Shown here: in pieces, positions 4,298-12,211 of the stretch
Layout: each line of letters opens with the position of its first letter
How positions within the stretch are numbered: the first letter of the stretch is position 1
Assembly (NCBI GenBank): GCA_018400675.1
Contig: JAGYMG010000001.1
Coordinates: 1-43,301 of the forward strand
Origin: a bacterium
GTDB taxonomy: Bacteria > Patescibacteriota > Minisyncoccia > Minisyncoccales > CG1-02-41-26
Length of the DNA stretch: 43,301 nucleotides
Reading direction: 5' to 3'
The notes under the pieces: generated by a model
Seen by the model: only the letters and a program-made list of their open reading frames with translations
What the model was told of the DNA's origin: nothing
Databases searched by the model: none
Program-made: the position numbers and the translations under genes

Positions 4298-5185
4298 TCA
4301 ATTTCTAAATCGTGTGCGATGAATCTTTTCAATTTTAGATTGTTGATGCCTTAATTTTTTTTCTGAACCGTAAACTAATTCTTTTTTATATTGTTCAACC
4401 CCTACAAGAAAATAGTTAAACAGATTAAGCCATTGTCCAAAATCTAAATCTCTGGGGGTCGCTAGTTTTCCAAAATTTAAATCTTTTGACAATCTATTAA
4501 ATTGTTTGTAGCTAAAAATTTTATTGAATGATTTTTTTAAATTTGGCTTTCGCTGGTGAAATCCATAAACAATGAAATCCTTATAGAGCTGAGATCTTTT
4601 TTTCTCAAGCAATATTTTATCTCTCTTTTTTATTCTTAGCAAAACAATATCAACTTTAGGAACAGGATAAAAATCAGTTCTCCTAAAATGATAAACTATT
4701 TCTAAATTAAACCAAGGTTTTAGAAGTACCGAATATTGACTCTCTTTGTCATAAGGCCGACCTACAAATTTTTTTGCCGCTTCTTTCTGAATAATTAGGT
4801 AACTTACCTTTGGTGAATTACTCAATGAAGTCAGCTTATTAATGACTTGTGCGGTAATTGAAAAAGGAATATTTGAAAAAATTTTATATTCCCCTTCTAG
4901 AGGTAACTTTTCTTCCAAGAAGTCTCCAAGCTTAATAACAACATTTTGATAATTAGAGAACGAATCTTTCAGTTTAGAATACAAAACTTTATCCTTCTCA
5001 ATCGCTGTTAGCCTCACTCCTGCATTTGCTAAGGCACATGTCAAAATACCCTTCCCAGGACCAATTTCATAGACAAGATCTCCTTTCTTAAAAGAGGCTT
5101 TTTTAATAAGCTTATCGGCCAGATTAGAGCTCTTCAGAAAATTCTGCGAATATTTTAGAGGAACATTATCTTTTTTAATTCTCAT
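4298..5185 (-). CDS. Erm-family 23S rRNA (adenine-N6)-methyltransferase; putative immunity gene of the RiPP operon
   Basis: 295 aa. Contains KYSQNFL (Erm-type, where KsgA has GQNFL), the SAM motif VYEIGPGKGILT, YKIFSNIPFSITAQVINK (NIPF catalytic motif) and FYPVPKVDIVLLRIKKR. The C-terminal domain resembles the ErmC/ErmB target-binding domain. Its start overlaps the upstream stop as ATGA (5182-5185). Confidence 0.8.
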   Translation of the reverse strand: MRIKKDNVPLKYSQNFLKSSNLADKLIKKASFKKGDLVYEIGPGKGILTCALANAGVRLTAIEKDKVLYSKLKDSFSNYQNVVIKLGDFLEEKLPLEGEYKIFSNIPFSITAQVINKLTSLSNSPKVSYLIIQKEAAKKFVGRPYDKESQYSVLLKPWFNLEIVYHFRRTDFYPVPKVDIVLLRIKKRDKILLEKKRSQLYKDFIVYGFHQRKPNLKKSFNKIFSYKQFNRLSKDLNFGKLATPRDLDFGQWLNLFNYFLVGVEQYKKELVYGSEKKLRHQQSKIEKIHRTRFRN

Positions 5186-5964
5186 TTTCCTAAAGCAATT
5201 AGGTAAAGTGGTGTTTCAGTTTTGTAATTCAGATCTAGCAAATCAACTATTTTTTTATCTAGAAAACCACCTATAGCACAAGATTTTATTTCAAGGGAAG
5301 TGCTAACTAAATGAATATTTTGACTTAAATGACCTGCTTCAAAAAGTATATATCGCCATCCCCTTTCCTTATATTTAATAATTGTTCTTGCGGAAACAGC
5401 AGTAATAATTATAACTAAACTACATTTTCTTATCCAGTTATGGTTAATAGTTTCTCTAAGGTTTTTTTTAAAATCACCTTTTGATAAAATCTCTAAACTG
5501 TTCCATTTTATATTATAATGATAAATCCCTGGTGATATTCCTTTTGCTTTTAACACAATAGGATAAACTTCAAGAGGGTATCTTGCACCAGCTGAGGGGT
5601 ACATTCGTCGGGATTCACTAAAGTCTTTTTTAATTTTATGAACGTCTTTTATCCCGGCAGAAAAATATAAAATTTTACTGATATTCTCTAATGTTAAAGC
5701 TTCCCCTTTAAAATCTCTTTCCGATTTCCTCTTCTCTAATAACGAAAATATAGGATTCTTTTCATTCCTGATCTTTCCAAAAAAGATTTGTTCTAAACGA
5801 GAGTATATTTTAAAATAAATTTTTAGCCAAGTTTTAGGGATTTTATTTTGAGACAGCTCTTTGGTAAATTCTTTTTGTATAGTATGTCTCAAAAAAATAA
5901 AACCTTTATCCTCGGAATTTTCTGACAATAAATCTTTATATAACTTTTTTGCATTACGAGTCAT
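5182..5964 (-). CDS. SagB-type (McbC-like) FMN-dependent azoline dehydrogenase
   Basis: 260 aa. Contains the nitroreductase-fold start LLEKRKSERDF and the SagB-type signature RRMYPSAGARYPLEVY. There is an extension of about 75 aa N-terminal to the fold. ATGA overlaps occur at both gene junctions. Confidence 0.8.
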   Translation of the reverse strand: MTRNAKKLYKDLLSENSEDKGFIFLRHTIQKEFTKELSQNKIPKTWLKIYFKIYSRLEQIFFGKIRNEKNPIFSLLEKRKSERDFKGEALTLENISKILYFSAGIKDVHKIKKDFSESRRMYPSAGARYPLEVYPIVLKAKGISPGIYHYNIKWNSLEILSKGDFKKNLRETINHNWIRKCSLVIIITAVSARTIIKYKERGWRYILFEAGHLSQNIHLVSTSLEIKSCAIGGFLDKKIVDLLDLNYKTETPLYLIALGK

Positions 5965-7250
5965 AAAAAAGGGTGAGGGAATGTATAAATATCTTTTATT
6001 GGTTTAAGCCCTATTCTTTGAGGAACCCTCCATAGTCTTTCTCCTTCCCAACATGGAAATCTGTCGTCTAAATAAAGTGGCTGAAGGCAAGGGACCAAAA
6101 CCTTTACTACCCTAAGGCCTTCTCTCTTTAAGCTTGGCAATGTTATATCAACATATATTACTTCCATCTTTTCTCTCTTAAACCATTTTAAAAGATTTTT
6201 TAAATTATTAGATTTCCGAGGAAAATCTCTTATTGGTTTTTTAGAACCTGCTAAAAAGAAGTCTATTTTTTTAATCATTTCAGGCGAAGACCACAGCAAA
6301 GCTCTGTTTTTTCTTTCATAGACAAGCCGATCTTTTTTAATCCGCTCTAAGTCTTTCTTTGACATTTTAATCATTAATTCTCTCACCCACGGACGAGGAT
6401 GGAAACATTCTTCTGTAGCTCCTATTATTGCATTCTTGATACTGGTGTCTGATTTAAGACCTACAGACACCGCAGGCCCCAAGCCAGTTCTATCTACTAC
6501 AATAGCCATGATAGAATAAACCGGAATATCTGTACTAATATCTAAGAGATAAAGTTCTAGGTTATATCTTTTAAGAGAGGATGCAATCTTCTTTAAGCTC
6601 TTATCCTTAGACTCAGTTATGCTGATAAGATTTCTGGTTAATTTGTTTAAATAGTTAACCATAAAAGCATCCCTTTCAATAACTTCTAAGAGTCCTGTTA
6701 AAATGGCTTTCTCTAAAGAATGATATAAAGCAGCACCAGTAGTAATAGGAAAATTAATAACTGACTCCTTTTTTTCAAATTTATAAGGTACAAAAACAAG
6801 CTGAGCCGGAACAAAAATCTTTTTACCTGTGATTAAAGAGGTTCCCCTAATCCAATTTAATTTTTCGTTATGGTCTTTATAACGATGAAAGTTTAGGACA
6901 GCTTCAGCTTTTGAAAAAGAAATAAATTGCCGGGGGTTAATTGCCTTATCTTTCAAGTTGCTATAACTTTCCCACAAAAGATCTTTTTTACGATAGACAG
7001 CTAAGTTGTATCTTTCCAACGTCTCAGCCACAGTTTTTAATAGCGCCCTCCTTTTAGAAAAAGACGCACATCTTCTGAATCTTTCCGTAACGAAGCCATC
7101 TGTTAAGTTGCTAATATCTTTTATCTTTATAATAAAAGAATGAACCCTAGGTTCATCGTTGTAATTAAATAATTCCCCTTCAATATTCTTAATAATTCTT
7201 TCCTTTTCCGCAACTTCTAATAATTTAATTATAGTTTTTCTAAGATTCAT
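5961..7250 (-). CDS. YcaO-family cyclodehydratase (TOMM D-protein type)
   Basis: 429 aa. The YcaO domain opens at KRRALLKTVAETLERYNL. It has the ATP/Mg-binding-type motif LLEVIERDAF and the Pro-rich C-terminus FPHPFL typical of azoline-forming YcaOs. Confidence 0.85.
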   Translation of the reverse strand: MNLRKTIIKLLEVAEKERIIKNIEGELFNYNDEPRVHSFIIKIKDISNLTDGFVTERFRRCASFSKRRALLKTVAETLERYNLAVYRKKDLLWESYSNLKDKAINPRQFISFSKAEAVLNFHRYKDHNEKLNWIRGTSLITGKKIFVPAQLVFVPYKFEKKESVINFPITTGAALYHSLEKAILTGLLEVIERDAFMVNYLNKLTRNLISITESKDKSLKKIASSLKRYNLELYLLDISTDIPVYSIMAIVVDRTGLGPAVSVGLKSDTSIKNAIIGATEECFHPRPWVRELMIKMSKKDLERIKKDRLVYERKNRALLWSSPEMIKKIDFFLAGSKKPIRDFPRKSNNLKNLLKWFKREKMEVIYVDITLPSLKREGLRVVKVLVPCLQPLYLDDRFPCWEGERLWRVPQRIGLKPIKDIYTFPHPFL

Positions 7251-7315
7251 TTATTAAAAAACAAAAACTAACACTTTATGTTGTCTTAAAAAAAGTTCTA
7301 TAATTTATTTTTTAT

Positions 7316-7495
7316 CTATCTCCGAGGCAAGCTAAATCCGCCGCCGCCTCCTCCTCCGCAACCTGTACCACAATTTCCACCGCCCGCTGAAGTACAACTA
7401 TTAGAGGGTTTTATGTCACTACTTTTTGAAAGTCTAGAAAGATGCTGTTCTTGAATATCTTCTAAAAATATTTTTTTATTGTTTTTATTTTTCAT
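7316..7495 (-). CDS. RiPP precursor peptide (linear azole-containing peptide / microcin B17-like), 59 aa; not in the ORF track
   Basis: Hand translation of the minus strand gives MKNKNNKKIFLEDIQEQHLSRLSKSSDIKPSNSCTSAGGGNCGTGCGGGGGGGFSLPRR, ending at a TAG stop (7316-7318). It has a hydrophilic leader with an F-x-x-x-I motif (FLEDI) and a core rich in Cys, Ser, Thr and Gly. It lies 65 nt upstream of ycaO and downstream of a good promoter. Confidence 0.8.
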   Translation of the reverse strand: MKNKNNKKIFLEDIQEQHLSRLSKSSDIKPSNSCTSAGGGNCGTGCGGGGGGGFSLPRR

Positions 7496-7538
7496 AAGTA
7501 TTAATCTTATTTTTTATAAATCAACCTTTATTGTTTTA

Positions 7539-7566
7539 ATGATAACACTGAGAATAGCATTGTCAA
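7539..7566 (-). promoter_or_regulatory. Candidate promoter of the RiPP operon (TTGACA-16-TGT-TATCAT, extended -10)
   Basis: Read on the minus strand: TTGACA (7561-7566), a 16-nt spacer ending in TGT, then TATCAT (7539-7544). It lies about 45 nt upstream of the precursor ATG. Confidence 0.55.
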
Positions 7567-7601
7567 GAAATAATCTTTATTTTTAAGAATAGCGTTGGTA
7601 G

Positions 7602-8333
7602 TCATTTCTTCTTTTCTAGCGGCAATATAAGGTGAAAGGTGCTGCCCTGGCCTGCCCCGGCTGATTCCGCCCAAATCCGGCCACCGTGGGCTTCAATAAT
7701 CTTGCTGGAGATATAGAGACCCACCCCCTTGCCCAGGGCATAGACCTCCTTGGCTTTTTCTCCTCGCTCAAAGATCTGATTGAATATTTGTTGGGACTGT
7801 GCTGGACTCATGCCAATACCTGTATCCCGGACAATAATCTCCAATGCTGAGTTCTTCTTTAGTTCTACTACTACCCCACCCTGCTGGGTGTATTGGATGC
7901 CATTATTGATAATGTTGTAAAGGGCTTCCTTGAATTTGGCTGGATCGACCTTAATCTGGGGCAGACTCCGGGGCTGCTGCAGTTCCAGGGAGAGCCCCTT
8001 CTCTGCAGCCTCAGGCCTTAACTCCTCGATCACTGACTGGACTAACTCTACTGGTTTCACCTTGGTTAGCTTAAGGATACTCTTACCCATCTGGAACTGG
8101 GAGATGTCGAGGAAGTCATTGACCAGACGAATCAGTTTTTCGGTGGACTCCCTGAAGAATCTGAGCTTGTCTTTAACCATTTGATTCACCCGACCATAAT
8201 CCCCTTCCAAGATCATAGAAACATAACCCTTCATAATGGTTAAGGGTGTCCTGAGGTGATGCTGGGTGGCCATAATAAACTGGCTCTTGGCTGCGTCTAA
8301 TTTCTTTAATTCCTGATGGGCTTGCTTTTCCAC
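7602..8333 (-). CDS. Sensor histidine kinase, C-terminal fragment (HisKA + HATPase_c)
   Basis: 243 aa read from a GTG start. H-box FIMATQHHLRTPLT, N-box NIINNGIQYT, G-boxes VRDTGIGM and GVGLYISSKIIEAHGGRIW. It is in the same reading frame as 8427-9824. Confidence 0.75.
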   Translation of the reverse strand: MEKQAHQELKKLDAAKSQFIMATQHHLRTPLTIMKGYVSMILEGDYGRVNQMVKDKLRFFRESTEKLIRLVNDFLDISQFQMGKSILKLTKVKPVELVQSVIEELRPEAAEKGLSLELQQPRSLPQIKVDPAKFKEALYNIINNGIQYTQQGGVVVELKKNSALEIIVRDTGIGMSPAQSQQIFNQIFERGEKAKEVYALGKGVGLYISSKIIEAHGGRIWAESAGAGQGSTFHLILPLEKKK

Positions 8334-8426: not shown

Positions 8427-9824
8427 CTAGTCATAGAGCTTGGCATTCTCCAGGGCAATCGAGGCCTGGCTGGCTAAGGCAGTCAGGAGGTCGAGGTCTT
8501 CCTTGGAATAAGGATCGCCAGAGATCTTGCGACCGAGGACAATCATGCCGATGATATTGTCTTCCCGGAAGAGCGGTAGGCAGAGGGTGGCCTCAATTCG
8601 CTTCATGTTCTCCTGGAGCTGAGCCAGATTCTCTTTCTCCTCTCTCAAGACAGAGTCTTTCTTGATCAAGGAGAGTTCTTCATAGACCAGGGGTCGTCCT
8701 GTTTGCTGGAGATACTCGGTCAGGAAGTTGTCCTGGACCAGGGAGATACCATTCTCCTCCTTAAAGCCAATGTTCCTGAGGATGGTATAGTTGCCTGTCC
8801 CCTCTCTCAAGAGAATGACTGTTCTTTCTAATTTCATTGTCTCTATCAGGGTGTTAACAATGAGATGGCTGAGTTTCTTTAGGTCAAGGATCCGGGTCAG
8901 CTTGTTGGCCAGTTCGGTCAAGACCTGTTGGTAGGAATAAAAAGTATAGTAGAAGTACTTGGCAGCTATCTCCTCGTAGAAACGGAAGACGGGCTGGAAG
9001 AGGAGAACAGCCAGGACAATGGTTAAGGGACCAATGATGTTGAAGGAAAAACCGTTGCCCGGGAACAAGCCGTTGAGGAATATTGTGAGAAAACTGAAAC
9101 CAACCACTGATAAAAGAGACAAGAGATAGACAGCACTCTTACCGAGGACTAAGCGGATATCCATGAGACGGTAGCGGGTTACAGCATAACTTAATATAAG
9201 AGGATAAAGAAAGACTAAAAAATTACCATAAGGAAGAATGGGAATATCATACCAAAGAGGATAGTTAGTTGCTCCCCCACCAAAACCGACTAGAACAGCC
9301 AACAGTATGTATTTAATCTGTTCGTGCAAGAAACCCCGAGACTTAAAATAAACAAATAATAATTCATAAACTGCATAGCCTATTAATCCTATGTAGCTAA
9401 CAAAAATATAAATCGTATAAATTATGCCTGCTCTGGGCCACCATAAAAAAGAGGCTGTTGGCTCTAAGGATTTAATATAAAAAGGGTTAAAAACAAAAAA
9501 TAAGAAAAATATACTCAAGGAATATCCGAAGAAAATAATAGCTTTCTTTTTTTTATCCCTTTTCAGTAGAACGAGAACCCAGTGCAGAAAAGTTATAGGA
9601 ATAAAAATTGAACCAATTGTTAAAAGACGAACCCAAAAGAAGGCCAGCTCTTTTGTTTGACTAATTAGCCAAAATCCGTAAGAAAAAGACCAGAAACTAA
9701 AAGATAAGGTCAGTAGAGCAAATATTTTATTAACTAGTTTTTTAGGATTTTTTAGATAGACAAAAGCTCCAAAAATAATACCAACTAGCCCATTGATAAA
9801 ACCAGAAAGAGCGAAAATAGCCAT
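8427..9824 (-). CDS. Sensor histidine kinase, N-terminal fragment (multi-pass membrane sensor + GAF domain)
   Basis: 465 aa. About 250 aa of hydrophobic helices are followed by a GAF-like domain (CLPLFREDNIIGMIVLGRK...LASQASIALENAKLYD). It ends at TAG 8427-8429. Confidence 0.75.
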   Translation of the reverse strand: MAIFALSGFINGLVGIIFGAFVYLKNPKKLVNKIFALLTLSFSFWSFSYGFWLISQTKELAFFWVRLLTIGSIFIPITFLHWVLVLLKRDKKKKAIIFFGYSLSIFFLFFVFNPFYIKSLEPTASFLWWPRAGIIYTIYIFVSYIGLIGYAVYELLFVYFKSRGFLHEQIKYILLAVLVGFGGGATNYPLWYDIPILPYGNFLVFLYPLILSYAVTRYRLMDIRLVLGKSAVYLLSLLSVVGFSFLTIFLNGLFPGNGFSFNIIGPLTIVLAVLLFQPVFRFYEEIAAKYFYYTFYSYQQVLTELANKLTRILDLKKLSHLIVNTLIETMKLERTVILLREGTGNYTILRNIGFKEENGISLVQDNFLTEYLQQTGRPLVYEELSLIKKDSVLREEKENLAQLQENMKRIEATLCLPLFREDNIIGMIVLGRKISGDPYSKEDLDLLTALASQASIALENAKLYD

Positions 9825-9845: not shown

Positions 9846-10757
9846 CTAGTTATTTATTGGTTTTTGAGACCTGTTAACCCAAACCTGCTTAGCAAAAGTT
9901 TTTTCCCAAACCATATTTTTAAAACCAATATCTTCTAAAATAGATTCTAGCTCTTCTTTGGGCAGAAAATGATATATGCCTAATTGTCCTTTTTTTTGTA
10001 TCTGAATCGCATGCTTGAGTATCCTCCAGCCCTGTGAAATACGAGTTATATCTTTATGGACTATATATTCATAGATATTAAGCATGTCCGGGATAGAGGC
10101 CAGAAAAACATATTCAAAACGAACATTTTTTTTAGGCGTTGACCAGATTAAATGACCGCCAGGTTTCAAAACTCTAAAGGTTTCCTCCAAAACTGCTTCA
10201 AGGGCCGCCTTCCCTGTTTTGCCTTCAAAATCAGTGACATAGCTGAGGCAGAGGTTCGCTACAATTCCATCAAAATAATTATCCGGGAAAGGAAATTTTT
10301 TTCCAATACTAGCTGCTTTTAGCTCTAAAGGCATTGGCTCTTTTAGTTTCTCTATCGTCTCCAGGGCTGGTTTTAAAACAATGTCTATCCCAATAATCTT
10401 AGATAATTTTTTTTCTGATTTTTTCCATATTAACTGGCTGATTTTTGCGGGGCCGCAACCCGCGTCTAACCAGACCTCACCTTTTTTCGGCTCTATCAAA
10501 TTACTGATCGTTCTTGTCAAAAAATAATAAGGTCGAGCCTTTTCAAGATTACAATATATCTTTGCGTATTCTTCCCAAAAAGCTGTTTCTTCTTCCCATT
10601 GCTTCAACCTTTCTGAACTAACAGGGTTTAACTCAGACCCTGACTGATATTCCCCGTAAAGGTTATCCTTATTATTTTTTTCTTCTCTTTCTTCTTGAGC
10701 CATTAATTCTAAACTTAATGAATTCTTTAATTTTATAATCATTATCGAAAAAATCAA
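9846..10757 (-). CDS. Class I SAM-dependent methyltransferase
   Basis: Motif I is LDAGCGPAKIS. Post-I is IIGIDIV, followed by FDGIVANLCLSYV and LKPGGHLIW. The track start at 10757 is a TTG codon and the first ATG is at 10742. About 80 aa precede the methyltransferase fold. Confidence 0.7.
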   Translation of the reverse strand: MIFSIMIIKLKNSLSLELMAQEEREEKNNKDNLYGEYQSGSELNPVSSERLKQWEEETAFWEEYAKIYCNLEKARPYYFLTRTISNLIEPKKGEVWLDAGCGPAKISQLIWKKSEKKLSKIIGIDIVLKPALETIEKLKEPMPLELKAASIGKKFPFPDNYFDGIVANLCLSYVTDFEGKTGKAALEAVLEETFRVLKPGGHLIWSTPKKNVRFEYVFLASIPDMLNIYEYIVHKDITRISQGWRILKHAIQIQKKGQLGIYHFLPKEELESILEDIGFKNMVWEKTFAKQVWVNRSQKPINN

Positions 10758-10801: not shown

Positions 10802-12211
10802 ATGACTAAGAAAAAACGCTTATTCTTCTCAATAACCTGCATAATACTCTTTCTTCTGGTTGCCCCGATCCTTGCTCTCTATTCTCAAGGCTATAAGCTT
10901 GATCTAGAAAAAATGCGGTTTGTAGCAACCGGAGGTTTTTATGTCCAAACCGAAAATACATCAGCCCAAATATATCTGGACGGGCGGTTCGAAAGAAAAA
11001 CCGGCATTCTCCAAAATAGTGCCTTGGTAAAAAATCTTATTCCTGGCGATTACCAGGTCAAGATAGAGCAAGAAGGATTTTTGAGCTGGGAAAAAACATT
11101 GCCCATATACTCTCAAAAAATAACCGAGATAAAAAATATTTTCCTGCTGAGAAAAAGACTACGATTCAATCTCTTGGCAAAAAATATAAGAGAATATTTA
11201 ATATCTCCGGACGGAAAAGAGCTGCTCCTGACAATAGACAATGAAGAGAAATGGCTAATCAAAACAGTCTCTTTAGAAAATCAGGAGGAAAGAAAGATTA
11301 TAGGAGCGGAATATTTTGAGGAAAGAAACCCAATAGCAGCGCCCAGTCTTTCAAACTGGCACCCCGAAACTAAAAGAATATTGTTGTCTTATACTGAAAA
11401 TGGAAAAAATGAATATCTCTTGATAAAGGATTATGAGACTGAAGAAAATAAAAAAATCATTCCTTTGAATAATATCCCTGATCAGGCCGAAAAAATTACT
11501 CTTGATGCTTCAGACGCCAGAGCTTTATTTTTTTTCCAGGACAAGACGATCCTGAGGCTGGAGGAAGGAATAGCACAACCCTCTCCCCTGCTTAATAATG
11601 CCATCAGCTATCTAATCAAGGACGGGGAAATAATATGGCTTTCTAAATCTGGTTTTCTTTATCGCTCTGGGCTTAGTGGAGAAACAAGAGAAATTATCAA
11701 TAGGAAACCCTTCCCTGTCCAAGAAGACAGCAATTATCAAATAGATTTTTACCGTTCCGACGTAGTCTTCCTCAGAGAGAGTGAAACTCTTTATTACCTC
11801 TCGGCAGCAGGCACTTTTGACAAAATATCCCAGGGCATCAAAGGATTAGTCCTGGCGCCCGACCAAACACGCCTAGCCTTTTGGAGTAATAATGAAATTT
11901 GGATTTTAGATCTTATCCCTGACCAGAGAGAAAATTATTATGGAGAGGAGAATATTGATCAGGAATACAGAGAGATATTCTTAAGCAGATTTTCAAAAAA
12001 AATAGGAGATTGCTTTTGGCTCACTCCTTATCATCTCATCTTTAATGTTGAGGATGATATTAAGATTACCGAGATTGATACCCGCGACCGACTGAATGTC
12101 TTTGGCCTAAAAAGCTTTAAGCATCCTTCAATATTCTTTAACCGGGAAAGAGACTGGCTACTTGTCTTTGCTGAAAATAATCTTTTCCTCTTTGACTCTA
12201 TCCTTGATTAG
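10802..12211 (+). CDS. Membrane-anchored PEGA-domain protein with a probable beta-propeller-like C-terminal region
   Basis: 469 aa with an N-terminal TM helix (LFFSITCIILFLLVAPILALY) and a PEGA-like segment (AQIYLDGRF...LIPGDYQVKIEQEGFLSWEKTL). This is one of only two plus-strand CDSs in the window. Confidence 0.5.
   Translation: MTKKKRLFFSITCIILFLLVAPILALYSQGYKLDLEKMRFVATGGFYVQTENTSAQIYLDGRFERKTGILQNSALVKNLIPGDYQVKIEQEGFLSWEKTLPIYSQKITEIKNIFLLRKRLRFNLLAKNIREYLISPDGKELLLTIDNEEKWLIKTVSLENQEERKIIGAEYFEERNPIAAPSLSNWHPETKRILLSYTENGKNEYLLIKDYETEENKKIIPLNNIPDQAEKITLDASDARALFFFQDKTILRLEEGIAQPSPLLNNAISYLIKDGEIIWLSKSGFLYRSGLSGETREIINRKPFPVQEDSNYQIDFYRSDVVFLRESETLYYLSAAGTFDKISQGIKGLVLAPDQTRLAFWSNNEIWILDLIPDQRENYYGEENIDQEYREIFLSRFSKKIGDCFWLTPYHLIFNVEDDIKITEIDTRDRLNVFGLKSFKHPSIFFNRERDWLLVFAENNLFLFDSILD

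Follow-up and report, generated by a model that had tools for sequence, protein, structure and literature searches.

Macrolide and lincosamide producers carry a classic cluster-encoded pair of self-resistance genes, those for Erm methyltransferases and those for ABC-F proteins. Examples are ErmE, TlrA/TlrD and LmrB among the Erm enzymes and OleB, CarA, SrmB, TlrC and LmrC among the ABC-F proteins. Both Erm methylation and the antibiotic-resistance ABC-F proteins counter drugs at the 50S peptidyl-transferase/exit-tunnel region. Immunity by rRNA methylation is also known from the thiopeptides, a class of peptides that are made by the ribosome and modified after translation (RiPPs), where Tsr and NshR methylate 23S rRNA. 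Among the linear azole-containing peptides (LAPs), microcin B17 targets DNA gyrase, and its immunity is provided by the pentapeptide-repeat protein McbG and the McbEF pump. The klebsazolicin producer is protected by an exporter. Likewise, self-immunity to phazolicin was shown experimentally to be due to PhzE, the exporter of its cluster (PMC6783444). Klebsazolicin binds in the exit tunnel at a site that overlaps the macrolide and streptogramin B sites (PMC5960728). Here, we analyse a LAP operon from an uncultured bacterium of the candidate phyla radiation (CPR)/Patescibacteria. The window, i.e. the whole stretch of DNA studied, comprises 43,301 nt (contig JAGYMG010000001.1, assembly GCA_018400675.1). 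The last gene of the operon encodes an Erm-type 23S rRNA methyltransferase. It probably provides cluster-encoded self-immunity against an azole peptide that would target the 50S exit tunnel or peptidyl-transferase region.

The operon consists of four cistrons on the minus strand, precursor, YcaO, SagB and Erm, which are packed tightly or overlap:

7539..7566, minus strand: promoter-like site (TTGACA, 16-nt spacer, TG-extended TATCAT; 11 of 12 matches), a candidate operon promoter by consensus match only
7316..7495, minus strand: open reading frame (ORF) for the precursor peptide, 59 aa, homologous to small ORFs 5' of YcaO in sister clusters
5961..7250, minus strand: YcaO, a SagD-type azoline-forming cyclodehydratase, 429 aa (Pfam YcaO, 182.3 bits; TIGR03604 TOMM_cyclo_SagD, 262.4 bits, cutoff 219.25)
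5182..5964, minus strand: SagB-type flavin mononucleotide (FMN) dehydrogenase (azoline to azole), 260 aa (Pfam Nitroreductase, 70 bits; TIGR03605 antibiot_sagB, 154.7 bits, cutoff 78.4)
5182..5185, minus strand: ATGA overlap of the SagB TGA stop and the Erm ATG start, read as ...GGAAAATGAGAATT...
4298..5185, minus strand: Erm-type rRNA adenine N6-methyltransferase, 295 aa, ATG start, Erm(42)/(53)-like subfamily

Three components of a LAP or thiazole/oxazole-modified microcin (TOMM) cluster are present: YcaO, a SagB-type dehydrogenase and a precursor with a Cys/Ser/Thr-rich core. The full precursor sequence is MKNKNNKKIFLEDIQEQHLSRLSKSSDIKPSNSCTSAGGGNCGTGCGGGGGGGFSLPRR. It has a basic N-terminus, the leader motif FLEDIQEQHL and the core ...SNSCTSAGGGNCGTGCGGGGGGGFSLPRR, and it matches no Pfam and no NCBIfam model. 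The start codon of SagB overlaps the YcaO stop by 4 nt. The overlap of the Erm start with the dehydrogenase stop, which the original prediction had read as ATGA, is found at 5185-5182 and indicates that Erm is translationally coupled to SagB and the other maturases. The second hexamer of the promoter-like site ends 43 nt 5' of the precursor ATG. It is the best match in the region, where such sites are no more numerous than expected from shuffled sequences.

Some genes expected from known LAP clusters are missing. Neither an E1-like (C) nor an Ocin-ThiF-like (F) partner was found among the four operon ORFs with Pfam and NCBIfam models; a recognition element fused to YcaO or SagB was not searched for. 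Family scans of the operon and its flanks detected no exporter, no pentapeptide-repeat protein and no E1/ThiF partner, and in the operon itself no leader peptidase and no other immunity candidate was recognisable. That the operon holds no other immunity gene counts for Erm as the immunity factor. In their compactness (precursor, YcaO, dehydrogenase) the klebsazolicin and phazolicin clusters resemble the window operon, and the target region predicted for its peptide is the same. In contrast, their cyclodehydratases have E1-like partners and their immunity does without target modification, whereas the window operon has no such partner and no exporter. Their cores show no obvious similarity to the window core. 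With microcin B17, the window peptide shares a Gly-rich core, in which Cys and Ser would be converted to thiazoles and oxazoles, and maturation by YcaO and an FMN dehydrogenase, whereas genes of the McbG/McbEF type are absent.

The original prediction had classified the 295-aa protein as an Erm and not as a KsgA/RsmA. This classification is now backed by hidden Markov model cutoffs, a search of solved structures, phylogeny, structure comparison and indel/extension characters. Translation of ORF 4298-5185 confirmed all four motifs on which the prediction was based: KYSQNFL (residues 11-17), VYEIGPGKGILT (38-49), YKIFSNIPF (100-108) and FYPVPKVD (172-179). The predicted contrast between SQNFL here and GQNFL in KsgA holds in the alignment, where E. 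coli RsmA, B. subtilis RsmA and a metagenomic KsgA-like gene all have GQNFL. The protein matches Pfam PF00398 RrnaAD with 172.1 bits (E = 1.6e-50). It passes the broad Erm model NF000499 Erm23S_rRNA_broad with 220.5 bits versus a cutoff of 212, a margin of 8.5 bits, and just fails the KsgA model TIGR00755 with 167.6 bits versus 171. The best specific Erm model is Erm(42), which is matched over its full length with 184 bits. As this score is far under the cutoff of 600, the window protein represents a different Erm class. In the search of solved structures, ErmAM/B (1yub, E = 1.7e-24), ErmC' and ErmE all ranked above any KsgA. By tblastn versus plasmids, identity is 39.6% to Erm(53) and 38.7% to Erm(42) over 96-97% of the length and 29-30% to ErmB/ErmC; the alignment with RsmA is partial and covers 56-73% of the query.

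A neighbour-joining (NJ) tree, a distance method, was calculated with 100 bootstraps from 131 sequences: the window protein, seven LAP-linked homologs, 116 environmental hits and, as references, Erm(42), Erm(53), ErmB, ErmC, two RsmA and one metagenomic KsgA-like protein. All Erms are separated from the three KsgA sequences at 100% bootstrap. This phylogeny, proposed at the outset as a check, places the protein inside Erm and outside KsgA. The environmental clade groups with Erm(42)/(53) at 99% bootstrap. The AlphaFold model of the window Erm (pLDDT 89.5) was compared with solved structures by Foldseek. The best match was ErmE (TM 0.91, rmsd 2.0), followed by Erm38 and ErmC' (0.89-0.90); KsgA, Dim1 and TFB1M reached only TM 0.62-0.81. 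In the alignment, the S-adenosylmethionine-binding motif I EIGPGKG, E63, D88 and the catalytic motif IV N105-IPF are intact, and an insertion of the two RsmA references is absent. Neither GQNFL, nor a score above the TIGR00755 cutoff, nor the universal spread of a housekeeping gene was found, and no second RrnaAD gene lies within the 43-kb window.

One part of the original description was overstated: The C-terminal domain does not track ErmC/ErmB closely. Apart from the low identity to these enzymes, it carries an extension of about 35 aa with a QQSKxxKIHRxR end, in the window protein ...QQSKIEKIHRTRFRN, that is common to the window Erm, Erm(42)/(53) and the whole environmental clade and missing in ErmB/C. 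A long basic helix predicted for residues 274-291 in the AlphaFold model forms this extension and is conserved in the clade. The nearest characterised enzymes are thus Erm(42) and Erm(53), mobile A2058 N6-methyltransferases of Pasteurellaceae, Enterobacterales and Psychrobacter, with which the window Erm shares the two-domain fold, the motifs and the KIHRxR extension. These two reside on an integrative and conjugative element or a plasmid of pathogens, whereas the window Erm is part of a peptide-antibiotic operon of an uncultured CPR bacterium. Judged from its sequence, the gene product is an Erm-family 23S rRNA adenine-N6 methyltransferase of the Erm(42)/(53)-like subfamily with predicted activity.

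The linkage of Erm to the peptide cluster recurs. YcaO-SagB lineages were dereplicated at 90% YcaO identity, and those with a YcaO at least 42% identical to that of the window were regarded as near. Erm is located beside the cluster in 8 of 15 near lineages versus 0 of 50 more distant ones (Fisher p = 1.3e-6, an optimistic value, as the lineages are related). With none of these 50 carrying Erm, a general linkage of Erm to LAP clusters was rejected, and chance proximity is unlikely. In the following, loci have L numbers and proteins P numbers. Three gene orders occur:

L085, L086, L087 and L097/98: Erm after SagB, as in the window; Erm identity to window 45-61%
L090-92 and L094: Erm upstream of the precursor; Erm identity to window 53-56%
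L095/96: Erm between YcaO and SagB; Erm identity to window 56%

The surrounding genes vary among these loci; L085, for instance, lies near genes for CARDB and Por-secretion-tail proteins. Motif IV NIPF is kept in seven of the eight LAP-linked homologs, L095 having AIPY; of the 120 best members of the clade, 113 have NIPF. Among LAP-linked Erms, the one of L095 (L095:2630-3511 = P0046, NCBI NCO32095.1), inserted between YcaO and SagB, is the most widespread and was seen on 63 contigs. With a location inside the operon, an ATGA overlap and a linkage that is kept among homologous clusters, Erm shows the gene context of a self-resistance gene.

In sister clusters that lack Erm, ABC-F genes were found. 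They were assigned with NF000355, the NCBIfam model for ribosomal-protection-like ABC-F (cutoff 380):

L105:716-2302, plus strand: ABC-F, 528 aa, between YcaO and SagB; NF000355 450.7 bits; fails the EttA models
L088:624-2177, plus strand: ABC-F, 59% identical, 3.5 kb upstream on the same strand; NF000355 425 bits
L144:2372-4060, plus strand: ABC-F of the more distant L143/L144 cluster, overlapping the SagB stop; NF000355 409.3 bits

YcaO and SagB of L105 are 54% and 61% identical to those of the window, and L088 encodes the closest YcaO of all (59%). In its type, the L088 core (SSSCSDPGGGGTGGGGA) matches those of L086, L087 and L097, which are Erm-linked. Since Erm and ABC-F are alternatives in one slot of one cluster family, they provide the strongest computational argument for products that would act at the 50S peptidyl-transferase/exit-tunnel region. 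The prediction of immunity to a ribosome-targeting product is considerably strengthened by this comparative linkage and the ABC-F evidence.

The precursors of the sister clusters are homologous. They have a basic N-terminus, a LEDIxEQxL leader and a core that starts with (S/N)SSC and then diverges. A short core type, SSSCSxPGGGG(V/T)GGGGA, occurs in L086-89 and L097, and poly-Cys/Gly types are found in the window, L085, L090, L094 and L095. The predicted cores of some clusters comprise about 17-19 residues, e.g. SSSCSDPGGGGTGGGGA. A NAD-synthase-family gene (NadE-like, PF02540; L088:4804-5634, L089:166-936, L086:3565-4347, L087:126-926, L097:2442-3200) adjoins all five clusters of the short type and is absent from the window and the clusters with poly-Cys cores. 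The NadE-like protein could be a tailoring enzyme specific for this core type, e.g. an amidotransferase. In addition, a GNAT acetyltransferase gene follows SagB directly in several sisters (L088:8124-8558, L099:8057-8554, L174:9085-9621 and, on the minus strand, L090:8383-8808). It was considered as a simple alternative to Erm and rejected, as L090-93 carry GNAT together with an upstream Erm. GNAT could serve in tailoring or as a second enzyme of immunity.

On this basis, the following mechanism is proposed. One mRNA would be transcribed from a promoter upstream of the precursor gene, and translational coupling would ensure that Erm is made whenever the precursor and the maturases are made. 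Erm would N6-methylate the 23S rRNA of the producer at the macrolide-site adenine (A2058, E. coli numbering). Once methylated, the producer's ribosomes would have a lower affinity for the matured azole peptide. The peptide would bind in the 50S nascent-peptide exit tunnel or the peptidyl-transferase region as klebsazolicin and phazolicin do. The methylated nucleotide, the protection against the product and the target of the product are what we infer here. The logic is that of macrolide, lincosamide and streptogramin producers, where 23S rRNA methylation, ABC-F proteins or both, alternative or complementary, are encoded by a resistance gene inside the biosynthetic cluster. Two differences are apparent: These producers are actinomycetes that synthesize polyketides or lincosamides, whereas here a ribosomally made azole peptide would be synthesized by a CPR bacterium, and their resistance gene is regulated separately, whereas the window Erm is apparently coupled to the maturases at the level of translation. 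With Tsr and NshR, the common feature is the protection of a RiPP producer by 23S rRNA methylation. These enzymes belong to the SpoU/TrmD superfamily and modify A1067 at the ribose 2'-O and not at the base N6, so that another site, the GTPase-associated centre, and another RiPP class are concerned.

Several points weigh against this proposal. Methylation is not automatically protective against tunnel-binding LAPs. In its composition, the Gly/Cys/Ser-rich window core is closer to the core of the gyrase poison microcin B17 than to klebsazolicin, so a ribosomal target is not suggested by the peptide itself. The assignment of a target nucleotide to the environmental clade leans on its nearest characterised enzymes, to which identity is only about 39-40%. 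In four or five sister lineages, neither Erm nor ABC-F lies within reach: In L099 and L174, GNAT alone follows SagB, and in L175 and L101 nothing recognisable was found. (A ThiF-like gene was seen only in the more distant L101.) Furthermore, the enzyme is not confined to LAP clusters. Its clade is large and environmental, with 672 hits, the best 120 of which are 46-65% identical to the window protein. No YcaO or SagB homolog lies within 8 kb in any of 84 clade loci (80 GTDB species representatives and four metagenome loci), which span Saccharibacteria, WWE3, Dojkabacteria, other CPR, Chloroflexota and Bacillota, and a LAP association of the clade in general was therefore rejected. Finally, LAP linkage is lacking for P0002, which of all homologs is closest to the window Erm (65% identity, sister at 87% bootstrap).

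From these last two points, an alternative to self-immunity can be derived: The gene might be a general mobile macrolide-lincosamide resistance gene against the antibiotics of neighbours that landed by, or travels with, the LAP island and is unrelated to the target of the LAP. Outside LAP clusters, the clade indeed consists of accessory genes. Large serine recombinases with Resolvase, Recombinase and Zn-ribbon domains are found most often next to them (11 loci), followed by tyrosine integrases (5 loci), as exemplified among L005-L084 by L015:6554-7915 and L043:1728-2621. Such neighbours are the signature of a mobile accessory gene and not of a housekeeping gene, which indicates that the non-LAP members are carried on mobile elements in CPR, Chloroflexota and Bacillota genomes. 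The LAP-linked Erms are, moreover, scattered in a poorly resolved tree: Internal branching of the clade is weak (bootstrap 24 for the clade, 9 for a group of four LAP-linked Erms), so that single and multiple capture of Erm by LAP clusters are not told apart. Nevertheless, we regard hitch-hiking as unlikely. The linkage is seen in eight lineages, in three gene orders and in unrelated contexts, including the insertion between YcaO and SagB in L095/96, and the Erm start codon overlaps the SagB stop. In addition, this slot within the cluster is taken in L105 by a ribosomal-protection-like ABC-F, in L144 such an ABC-F adjoins SagB, and the 50 more distant LAP lineages are devoid of Erm.

Alternatively, the protein could be an Erm-derived immunity factor whose clade modifies another position of 23S (or 16S) rRNA than A2058, with the LAP binding at another ribosomal site. 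The distance to the nearest characterised Erms, the narrow margin over the broad Erm cutoff and the distinctive conserved basic C-terminal helix of the clade would fit this idea. The C-terminal extension is, however, common to Erm(42) and Erm(53), both listed as A2058 methyltransferases by NCBIfam and AMRFinder, and antibiotic-resistance ABC-F proteins act at the peptidyl-transferase/exit-tunnel region, too. To our knowledge, every characterised Erm targets A2058. Modification of another nucleotide is therefore considered very unlikely.

We assign a still smaller probability to a role in tailoring, in which the Erm-like protein would N-methylate the peptide, like the plantazolicin N-methyltransferase or the amide methyltransferases with an NPPY motif, and not rRNA. 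LAP clusters can encode peptide-tailoring methyltransferases (plantazolicin N-methylation, PMC7136475), and the gene appears to be co-translated with those of the maturases. By contrast, the whole two-domain Erm architecture is kept, including the C-terminal RNA-recognition domain and the basic tail; family members that share 45-65% identity occur away from peptide genes; core sequences differ widely among the Erm-linked clusters; and that ABC-F, a protein without a role in tailoring, can replace Erm speaks for a resistance slot. An ordinary KsgA/RsmA that dimethylates 16S A1518/A1519 and happens to sit 3' of the LAP genes could be invoked on account of the TIGR00755 score just under its cutoff and the lack of a second RrnaAD gene in the 43-kb window, the only part of the genome inspected, yet it is hardly credible given the failed KsgA and passed Erm cutoffs, the 100% bootstrap separation, SQNFL instead of GQNFL, the absent KsgA insertion, a predicted structure closer to Erms, a patchy spread across phyla beside recombinases and a composition that matches the island and not the genome.

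Self-immunity by an embedded resistance gene may be a feature of a whole cluster family. We suggest, tentatively, that the window operon and its sisters represent an undescribed family of minimal LAP clusters (peptide, YcaO and SagB; no E1/ThiF, exporter or protease) in CPR/Patescibacteria and neighbouring uncultured lineages, which might make small binders of the 50S exit tunnel or peptidyl-transferase region and use embedded Erm or ABC-F interchangeably for immunity. Novel here are the Erm-family member and the CPR LAP cluster family with embedded Erm or ABC-F and without exporter and E1/ThiF. By comparison, rRNA-methylation immunity as such is already known from macrolide producers and from thiopeptides, where Tsr/NshR belong to another enzyme family and act at another site. 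No precedent for YcaO, LAP or RiPP clusters linked to Erm or ABC-F was found in the open-access literature, and a 2020 review of translation-targeting RiPPs does not mention LAP clusters with embedded Erm or ABC-F.

The operon forms an island of distinct composition, and the following further features lie next to it:

4298..7601: compositionally distinct island, GC 0.29-0.335, GC at third codon positions 0.20-0.28 in the three enzyme genes
7602-8333 and 8427-9824, minus strand: sensor kinase split in two ORFs, one for the 7TM and GAF part and one for the HisKA and HATPase part; GC 0.41 and 0.48 (window mean 0.38)
9846-10757, minus strand: class-I methyltransferase, preceding the sensor kinase ORFs

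Outside the island, GC amounts to 0.382 as window mean and to 0.39-0.48 in the genes on both flanks; the composition of erm corresponds to the island rather than to the genome. The island is flanked by the class-I methyltransferase, the two-ORF 7TM/GAF/HisKA sensor kinase and ispD. A 469-aa ORF at 10802-12211 has no Pfam match and is a rare long plus-strand ORF in an almost wholly minus-strand window. The window also encodes a ribosomal-protein operon, MreB, MurA, IspD and, about 31 kb from the LAP operon, EF-G. The best matches of EF-G among named proteins are from Minisyncoccales (76%) and from Parcubacteria, Nealsonbacteria and Pacebacteria (73-75%), and it is 91% identical to P0253 on a 463-kb JGI contig, which thus belongs to a close relative. 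By these matches, the host is a Parcubacteria-type CPR bacterium. Exact-sequence look-ups for the window Erm, L36 and IF-1 returned no identical record.

The methyltransferase and kinase genes recur elsewhere. L001 and L002 carry a homologous methyltransferase and the 7TM N-terminal part of the kinase with 64-65% identity to the window. Matches of the HisKA/HATPase part are weaker: 57% to a second kinase of L001, and 72% over 60 aa at the contig end of L002. In L105, a methyltransferase and a 7TM kinase with 36-44% identity to those of the window are located just 3' of the LAP cluster. This recurrence may reflect a conserved neighbourhood or cluster regulation. As the contigs that encode P0002 share the methyltransferase and kinase of the window at 64-65%, the two organisms are probably related, and Erm genes would then have entered or left LAP clusters within a short evolutionary time. 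P0002 itself is encoded after a HisKA_7TM kinase and a NUDIX gene and before a MvdD-like ATP-grasp gene and a 43-aa ORF. In this region (L001:8001-10263, also L002-L004), the ATP-grasp protein comprises 333 aa with MvdD pre-ATP-grasp and RimK domains, and together with the 43-aa ORF it looks like a graspetide-type RiPP pair. A few occurrences carry archaeal labels. An Erm-clade gene with 42% identity is present in L066, a metagenome-assembled genome (MAG) labelled Bathyarchaeia, and the YcaO proteins P0130/P0251 (NCBI MDD5485476.1 and others), 54% identical to that of the window, are found in MAGs labelled Methanocellales archaeon. These could be due to cross-domain transfer or to binning artefacts.

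One family of azole peptides, very small and easy to synthesise, is marked by two independent resistance mechanisms directed at the 50S subunit, which makes this family a pointer to new antibiotics. Without a recognisable leader-binding partner, the conserved LEDIxEQxL leader must be recognised by this YcaO in some other way, a question for YcaO enzymology, and the lack of an exporter in the operon poses that of product release. A large environmental clade is now linked to the Erm(42)/(53) branch. If self-immunity is true, the clusters would provide a selective context for erm-type genes outside the actinomycete macrolide producers. If the proposed cluster family proves true as well, such clusters would be a natural reservoir of the mobile resistance genes of the Erm(42)/(53) type that animal pathogens carry, and possibly a source from which these genes evolved. 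Furthermore, the findings suggest that ultra-small, host-dependent CPR bacteria may wage ribosome-targeted chemical warfare, which bears on the interaction with their bacterial hosts.

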